Shown here piece after piece: positions 23,561 to 24,252 of a stretch of 50,066 nt of DNA (positions are counted from its first letter, which is position 1; every line of letters starts with the position of its first letter). The translations under genes were made by a program, and so were the position numbers. The stretch comes from Escherichia phage EF3-1. The notes beneath the pieces were generated by a model. It searched no databases and was not told where the DNA came from. It worked only from the letters and a program-made list of their open reading frames with translations. The DNA lies in the sequence record PQ571291. The stretch is one strand, 5' to 3'.

Positions 23561-23770
23561 ATGGCACGCATTAACGCAAACTTTTTCAATATCTCTCAAC
23601 AGTCCGCAAAAATGGCTGTTCATATCACTGACAAGAAAGGCGGTAACTTTGATTGGGATATTGCTATGAACTTCCTTAAAATGGCTTATTACCTCTGCTC
23701 AGTCAAAGATGTTGAGTGTTTTATTGAAAGCGTGGAGAAACTAACCAATGCTGATAAAAAAACAAGGTAA
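23561..23770 (+). CDS. hypothetical protein (69 aa)
   Basis: ATG at 23561 with SD GAGGAA. Confidence 0.55.
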   Translation: MARINANFFNISQQSAKMAVHITDKKGGNFDWDIAMNFLKMAYYLCSVKDVECFIESVEKLTNADKKTR

Positions 23771-24020
23771 ACGAGAGGTTTGGGAGCACGCGAAGGAATG
23801 CGGAATCTCAGACGATATAGCACTAATAGCAAAATATTTCGATATAAAGGATGTTAGCATTATCTCAAATGGCAAGATTTCATTTATGGAGGATATGCCG
23901 AGAAAAATGCATAGAGTGCCAGCAACTCCGTCACTTGAGTTTTATCGTGAAGAGGGAAAGAGAATTGAGAGAGAACGAAAAACAGCAAAGAACAACAAGT
24001 CTTCCAGGCTTAAACATTAA
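23748..24020 (+). CDS. hypothetical protein (90 aa)
   Basis: SD GGAGAAA upstream; overlaps next ORF in another frame. Confidence 0.4.
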   Translation: MLIKKQGKREVWEHAKECGISDDIALIAKYFDIKDVSIISNGKISFMEDMPRKMHRVPATPSLEFYREEGKRIERERKTAKNNKSSRLKH

Positions 24021-24252
24021 CGAAGACGATTACCAGACCATATGGATCGGAAAGAAGAAGGTTAAGAAAATCCCTTTCTCTGATTGGTTGCCTACTGACT
24101 TCGTTAACGTGCTGTGTACCATAGGGATCGATCAGGAATTGCATATAGGTTATTACTCACCTGGTCGAAACAGTATGATGCTTGAGGTTGACGGAAAGCT
24201 AGTTGAGTTTAAATCGTCAGATCTAGGATTCTGGTTAAAGGCTGTGGCATGA
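23965..24252 (+). CDS. hypothetical protein (possible TTG start; overlaps previous ORF)
   Basis: Frame open from 23851; TTG at 23965 preceded by GAGGG; protein-like C-terminal 80 aa. Confidence 0.35.
   Translation: MRENEKQQRTTSLPGLNINEDDYQTIWIGKKKVKKIPFSDWLPTDFVNVLCTIGIDQELHIGYYSPGRNSMMLEVDGKLVEFKSSDLGFWLKAVA

Follow-up and report, generated by a model that had tools for sequence, protein, structure and literature searches.

Two small genes of a T1-like coliphage overlap by 56 nucleotides, with a probable TTG start for the downstream gene

The window analysed here is the whole 50,066-nucleotide sequence of Escherichia phage EF3-1 (PQ571291). Its segment 23200-24400 matches about 60 T1-like phages (Drexlerviridae, Tunavirus) at 92-98% nucleotide identity, with Escherichia phage vB_EcoS_SA12KD as the best match (98.3%), and on its sequence we assign the window to a T1-like coliphage of the genus Tunavirus. 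A search for prophage copies of this segment in complete E. coli genomes gave zero matches. The local gene order, read 5' to 3', is a helicase, a VRR-NUC protein, the Dam methylase, a T1p19-like gene, an intrinsic terminator, a T1p18-like gene, two small open reading frames termed here ORF1 and ORF2, and an exonuclease gene (Table 1); within the DNA-metabolism module, ORF1 and ORF2 lie downstream of dam and upstream of the exonuclease gene. The initial annotation had placed the two frames downstream of dam, and dam does lie upstream, but the T1p19-like gene, the terminator and the T1p18-like gene intervene before ORF1. The terminator sits upstream of a block formed by the T1p18-like gene, ORF1 and ORF2. 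The first gene past the terminator, the T1p18-like gene, overlaps ORF1 by 23 nucleotides (23748-23770), has a Shine-Dalgarno:anti-Shine-Dalgarno (SD:anti-SD) energy of -6.3 kcal/mol, and shows 15, 6 and 29 variable columns at codon positions 1, 2 and 3 respectively among 15 Tunavirus sequences. Its stop codon occupies 23768-23770, the ORF1 ATG stands at 23748, and the T1p18-like gene, ORF1 and ORF2 each lie one frame beyond the preceding gene. Directly 3' of the exonuclease gene is an ORF of 58 aa (25546-25722), which in relatives is followed by a holin gene; a 2026 paper on phage KanT1 (PMC13164509) describes, at that position after the exonuclease, a component of the Tunavirus lysis module, namely a standalone SH3 protein (DUF7244).

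Table 1. Features of the window around the two overlapping genes
Feature	Position	Strand	Remarks
Dam methylase gene (dam)	22533-23246		
T1p19-like gene	23243-23494		between dam and the terminator
Intrinsic terminator	23504-23525	+	9-bp stem and T tract; annotated in SA12KD
T1p18 homologue	23561-23770	+	69 aa; phrog_2180, E = 3.3e-22; annotated in relatives
ORF1	23748-24020	+	90 aa, ATG start; phrog_2817
Open stretch of the ORF2 frame ahead of the TTG	23851-23964	+	38 codons from ATG 23851; probably non-coding in this frame
Shine-Dalgarno GAGGG	23952-23956	+	8 nt upstream of TTG 23965-23967
ORF2	23965-24252	+	95 aa, putative TTG start; T1p17 homologue; phrog_4596
Overlap of ORF1 tail and ORF2 head	23965-24020	+	56 nt
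Metallophosphoesterase-type 'DNA repair exonuclease'	24331-25482	+	383 aa; phrog_704, E = 5e-157; annotated in relatives

Residues 3-75 of the ORF1 product align with positions 2-75 of the 84-position phrog_2817 HMM (E = 1.5e-32), and in tblastn searches residues 1 to about 62 are matched in 847 phage records, from Klebsiella, Escherichia, Salmonella, Citrobacter and other phages. The protein consists of a conserved domain (residues 1-62) followed by the motif FYREEGKR and a basic C-terminal helix, and its AF2 model has a pLDDT of 82. Homologues are annotated as SA12KD_36, pSf2_08 and, in phage XJA18, ctg_00068; the database proteins of this family are 77-99 aa long, a single record discussed below (P0028) excepted. 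Pfam gave zero matches above its cut-offs for either ORF, with DUF7334 reaching 17.5 bits against ORF1 (cut-off 27) over 26 residues only, and the best hit in profile searches of PDB sequences had an E-value of only 0.11. The ORF1 homologue is without annotation in the RefSeq records of Sfin-3 and Shfl1 and in the GenBank record of T1 (MK213796.1), which leaves a gap of about 195 nucleotides (23771-23964 in the window; 2072-2265 in locus L002, and likewise in L003 and L007), and at this position the locus tags of Shfl1 skip from p64 to p66.

The ORF2 product matches the phrog_4596 HMM over almost the entire profile (residues 12-94 to positions 2-84 of 85; E = 5.5e-37), and residues from about 42-50 to 132 of the longer open frame are matched by tblastn in only 147 records. 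Database proteins of this family (n = 111) measure 46-96 aa, the 133-aa P0002 being the sole exception. Confidence in the AF2 model (pLDDT 85) is low over residues 1-19 and becomes high only at about residue 20; the protein is thus modelled as a disordered N-terminal extension of 12 residues followed, from the motif LPGLN onwards, by a small beta-barrel. A comparison with DUF551-like small beta-barrels gave no significant match in sequence or fold. ORF2 is annotated from the equivalent of TTG 23965 in T1 (T1p17), Shfl1 (Shfl1p66), Sfin-3 and SA12KD (SA12KD_37). Deposited starts for the family are inconsistent, giving 133 aa in LeonhardEuler (bas13_0037, P0002), 95 aa in T1, Shfl1 and SA12KD, and 54 aa in pSf-2, where the version with the later start (pSf2_07; L004 2389-2553) now forms a family of its own, phrog_38834. 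The HazelMika homologue (HazelMika_37; L013 1090-1473) is called at 127 aa despite an ATG at a 4-nt junction with ORF1, and in phiKP26 (L010, NC_042038.1) an ambiguous base at about 1440-1450 makes the ORF2 homologue read WLKXVK.

We aligned 15 distinct Tunavirus sequences (the window and 14 others) over 805 nucleotides with zero gaps and sorted the variable columns by codon position. In 23771-23850, ahead of the first ATG of the ORF2 frame at 23851, positions 1, 2 and 3 of ORF1 hold 1, 1 and 16 such columns; in 23851-23964 the corresponding counts are 0, 2 and 14 for ORF1 and 2, 14 and 0 for the ORF2 frame. Between 23965 and 24020 they are 9, 3 and 5 for ORF1 and 3, 5 and 9 for ORF2, and past the ORF1 stop (24021-24249) the ORF2 frame shows 13, 8 and 39. 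In other words, the third position of ORF1 holds 30 of the 34 variable columns in 23771-23964 and the third position of ORF2 holds 39 of the 60 in 24021-24249, with codon periodicity following ORF1 up to about 23969 and ORF2 from about 23970. Because most changes in 23851-23964 fall on position 2 of the ORF2 frame, this stretch encodes no constrained protein in that frame, and the switch of periodicity near 23970 therefore shows that both ORFs are real genes and that ORF2 is constrained coding sequence from about the TTG, not from 23851. By this pattern ORF1 is a genuine gene under selection of its own, and so, separately, is ORF2; the pattern also supports the 95-aa TTG version of the latter.

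Within the overlap, the stretch 23981-23996 is variable at all codon positions and probably forms a linker in both proteins, while 24000-24021 varies at position 3 of ORF2 alone. At the protein level, the 12-residue extension (23968-24000) is little constrained. The terminal S-R-L-K of ORF1 is read from the LPGLN codons of ORF2 in the other frame. The overlap covers parts of both proteins that tolerate change, namely the low-complexity basic C-terminal tail of ORF1 and the disordered N-terminal extension of ORF2.

The initial annotation had reported the 90-aa frame 23748-24020 together with a second frame open from 23851 to 24252, overlapping by about 170 bp, and both frames are present. The second runs from the ATG at 23851 to a stop at 24250-24252 (133 aa), lies at +1 relative to ORF1, and has 170 nucleotides in common with it. 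To gauge what such openness means, the ORF1 protein was held fixed and its codons were redrawn by the window's own usage in 20,000 trials; in 49% of the resamplings the ORF2 frame upstream of the TTG was free of stops over 39 codons, the length observed, or more (P = 0.49). The openness of 23851-23964 in the ORF2 frame is at chance level and uninformative, and this upstream stretch showed no conservation in distant relatives. Of the reported overlap, the 170 nucleotides open in both frames stand as described, but the biologically meaningful part is probably the 56 nucleotides of 23965-24020.

A plausible TTG start at 23965 behind GAGGG had also been pointed out, and this suggestion held up well: the motif is there, the TTG is invariant across the 15 Tunavirus sequences, and its SD:anti-SD energy of -6.3 kcal/mol lies within the range of neighbouring genes used for comparison (-5.9 to -7.8 kcal/mol). 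The GAGGG is encoded by the conserved E-E-G codons of ORF1. The other candidate starts score +0.3 (ATG 23851), -3.4 (ATG 23869, absent in T1), +0.7 (TTG 23935), -2.2 (GTG 23947, absent in T1) and +0.6 kcal/mol (TTG 24088, the start called in pSf-2), and between 23968 and 24087 of the window there is no in-frame ATG, GTG or TTG. Four metagenomic intermediates (L040-L043) extend the comparison. In L040 and L041, also without a downstream ATG, the TTG stands at the identical position with a 56-nt overlap, even though their ORF2 proteins share no more than 56% and 47% identity, respectively, with that of the window and the ORF1 codon there differs (ATT versus CTT); a purine-rich AAGG/AGGA is retained in both. 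L042 and L043 have ATG starts with overlaps of 41 and 29 nt. Shuffled controls fold more strongly than the RNA of 23925-24045 (z = +1.19), and this low degree of structure is favourable to initiation at a weak codon and offers no stimulator for frameshifting. The assignment of the start to TTG 23965 thus draws on its conservation, its Shine-Dalgarno sequence and the absence of alternatives. As both the GAGGG and the TTG lie inside the conserved FYREEGKRIE codons of ORF1, part of their conservation could stem from ORF1 alone. Literature searches for overlapping genes in Tunavirus and for transcriptomes of T1 yielded nothing on this locus, be it ribosome profiling, N-terminal proteomics or start-codon mutagenesis.

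Elsewhere in the Drexlerviridae the two genes are arranged in several ways. In NBD2, HazelMika (Vilniusvirus), phiKP26 (Rogunavirus), TH30 (Nouzillyvirus) and Yersinia phage YP10S2 they meet in a 4-nt ATGA overlap at a frame offset of 2, and ORF2 begins M-(N/S)-LPGL(N/D). IME347 (Badaguanvirus) has an offset of 1, an ATG start and a 32-nt overlap. In AN_ECEAS (Braunvirinae) a 48-aa gene separates the two homologues, and eleven IMG/VR loci (L029-L039) carry an ORF1 homologue without an ORF2 homologue. The frame offset is thus 1 in the Tunavirinae and 2 in four other genera, and within the lineage overlaps of 29, 32 and 41 nt go with ATG starts and one of 56 nt goes with TTG. ORF1 and ORF2 therefore occur unfused or independently in other genomes, and every locus fetched from other genera was without a single continuous ORF. 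A conserved long ORF2, suggested by tblastn alignments spanning residues 2-132 in IME347 and 17-133 in NBD2, was rejected: both phages have ATG starts just before LPGLN, and the upstream part of the alignments is the ORF1 homologue, which in NBD2 lies in a different relative frame.

Among about 140 database homologues no natural fusion of ORF1 and ORF2 was found, and a search of database proteins for an N-terminal ORF1 part joined to a C-terminal ORF2 part likewise returned none. Fused forms at the locus are confined to two visibly faulty records. One is P0028, a 132-aa protein from one Logan contig, which we rejected as a fusion because it combines T1p18, ORF1 and the non-coding part of the ORF2 frame in a chimera that arises by two single-A deletions, in an A7 run (23756-23762) and an A5 run (23903-23907), and since these are homopolymer deletions we attribute it to sequencing error. 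The A7 run lies within the 23-nt overlap of the T1p18-like gene and ORF1. The other is the 133-aa CDS Sfin2_70 of Shigella phage Sfin-2 (L044, MK972831.1, deposited as a 'partial genome'), which is also spurious. Here two 1-nt deletions of G between A-runs (window positions 23990 and 24054) first join the two frames and then disrupt them, abolish the conserved IPFSDWLP core of ORF2 and leave a 37-aa remnant, Sfin2_69; the sister phage Sfin-1 is intact.

We consider it very probable that the locus holds two small genes, independent of each other and on one strand, that overlap by 56 nucleotides, with ORF2 initiated separately at TTG 23965. Two overlapping genes were one of three options raised by the initial annotation, next to recoding and an assembly indel, and it is the one borne out by the separate selection in each frame and by membership in separate families, phrog_2817 and phrog_4596. 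That a sequencing or assembly indel split one gene into two frames is almost certainly wrong: indels are known in public records of this very locus (two 1-nt deletions in Sfin-2 and two in A-runs of one Logan contig), yet the window aligns without a gap over the 805 nucleotides to 14 distinct, independently sequenced Tunavirus genomes, and the split layout is common to about 64 records. A single continuous ORF in relatives, the finding named at the outset as speaking against two genes, was not encountered in any credible record, as these close relatives keep both frames and the distant ones have separate genes. Programmed +1 (or -2) frameshifting near 23965-24020, which would join the N-terminal domain of ORF1 to the C-terminal domain of ORF2, is extremely improbable. 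The +1 relation of ORF2 to ORF1 fits it, the switch of periodicity near 23970 would also be compatible with a fusion product, and the stretch contains AGA and AGG, codons that are rare in E. coli. Against it, the frame relation varies by genus, AN_ECEAS has its intervening gene, many phages carry ORF1 without ORF2, and a fused homologue is lacking among the database proteins. By the motif rules of +1 slippage at prfB and Ty-type sites, none of the ORF1-frame codons of 23959-23976 (AGA ATT GAG AGA GAA CGA) permits +1 tRNA re-pairing on inspection; the stop context of ORF1 is CAT TAA C and not the prfB-like CUU-UGA, and a stimulatory RNA structure is absent. The locus lacks every feature of programmed +1 frameshifting for which we looked.

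The remaining alternatives concern the extent of ORF2 rather than its separateness. A long protein of 133 or 127 aa, starting at ATG 23851 or 23869 and overlapping ORF1 by 152-170 nt, has on its side that every Tunavirus record keeps the frame open from 23851, with tblastn alignments extending over residues 1-133, and that some depositors annotated it so, in LeonhardEuler and similarly in HazelMika. It is nevertheless very unlikely, with 14 of the 16 variable columns in 23851-23964 at position 2, where a change always alters the amino acid, and 0 at position 3; in addition the openness is that expected by chance, neither ATG has a usable Shine-Dalgarno sequence, the one at 23869 is missing in T1, and family members of 73-96 aa begin at LPGLN. 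A start even closer to the conserved part, either at a non-canonical codon nearer LPGLN (for example at about 23989-24000) or by reinitiation after the TAA of ORF1, is very unlikely too. The weakly constrained extension and its all-variable stretch leave room for the former, and most family members do start 1-3 residues before LPGLN. Opposed to this are the lack of any ordinary in-frame start codon between 23968 and 24087, the proper spacing of the Shine-Dalgarno sequence for TTG 23965, and the distribution of starts, as the TTG is kept throughout Tunavirus and in two divergent ATG-less lineages, whereas ATG-bearing lineages use their ATG.

On the reading as two separately initiated genes, ORF1 would be translated from its own ATG, and ribosomes binding the GAGGG within its EEG codons would initiate ORF2 de novo at TTG 23965 to give the 95-aa protein. 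We propose that the longer overlap developed from the common ATGA junction by a change of frame at the end of ORF1 and loss of the ATG preceding LPGLN, such that in the Tunavirinae the end of ORF1 would continue, in another frame, through the LPGLN codons of ORF2. As Tunavirus has no ATG just before LPGLN, initiation would take place at the upstream TTG. In E. coli initiation at TTG is weaker than at ATG, and for this reason less product is probably made from ORF2 than from ORF1; a weak TTG in a translated, unstructured and purine-rich stretch may result in a modest output of ORF2, loosely coupled to that of ORF1. One could speculate that the 29-56-nt overlap of the Tunavirinae is not neutral, in that a minor ribosome shift or a fixed ratio of ORF1 to ORF2 yields a low-abundance fusion beside the separate proteins, but we regard this as scarcely credible. 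The evidence does not require such a fusion, and most of it argues against one.

The pair itself is already known, being deposited in GenBank as SA12KD_36/37 and, in XJA18, as ctg_00068/67, and with both genes annotated in several relatives the arrangement is ordinary, a commonplace instance of small phage genes that overlap, and carries little biological weight. Its value is partly one of annotation, given that the Sfin-3, Shfl1 and T1 records inspected lack phrog_2817, a family found in over 800 Drexlerviridae records, and that ORF2 has been deposited with three different starts (133, 95 and 54 aa). It also offers a clean small example of an ATGA junction drifting to a longer overlap where both of the overlapped protein parts are unconstrained.

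Sites of the prfB type resemble EF3-1 in geometry only, having a downstream frame at +1 and an SD-like purine tract upstream; unlike them, EF3-1 lacks a slippery P-site codon and a stop context prone to shifting, its frame relation is not conserved and fused homologues are missing, and these differences, together with the lack of RNA structure, led us to discard the recoding option. The closest counterparts are SA12KD_36/SA12KD_37, T1p17, Shfl1p66 and pSf2_08, which share with EF3-1 the coordinates, the frames, the start at TTG and the overlap of 56 nt, their nucleotide identity being 92-98%, and between the SA12KD pair and that of EF3-1 there is nothing of substance that differs. The phages with an ATGA junction (NBD2, phiKP26, TH30, YP10S2) have the same two families in the same order and on the same strand, and in them too the downstream start and its Shine-Dalgarno sequence lie inside the upstream gene. 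In contrast to these, EF3-1 has an overlap of 56 rather than 4 nucleotides and a TTG in place of the ATG start, and in this comparison only its ORF1 passes, in the other frame, through the first 18 codons of ORF2.
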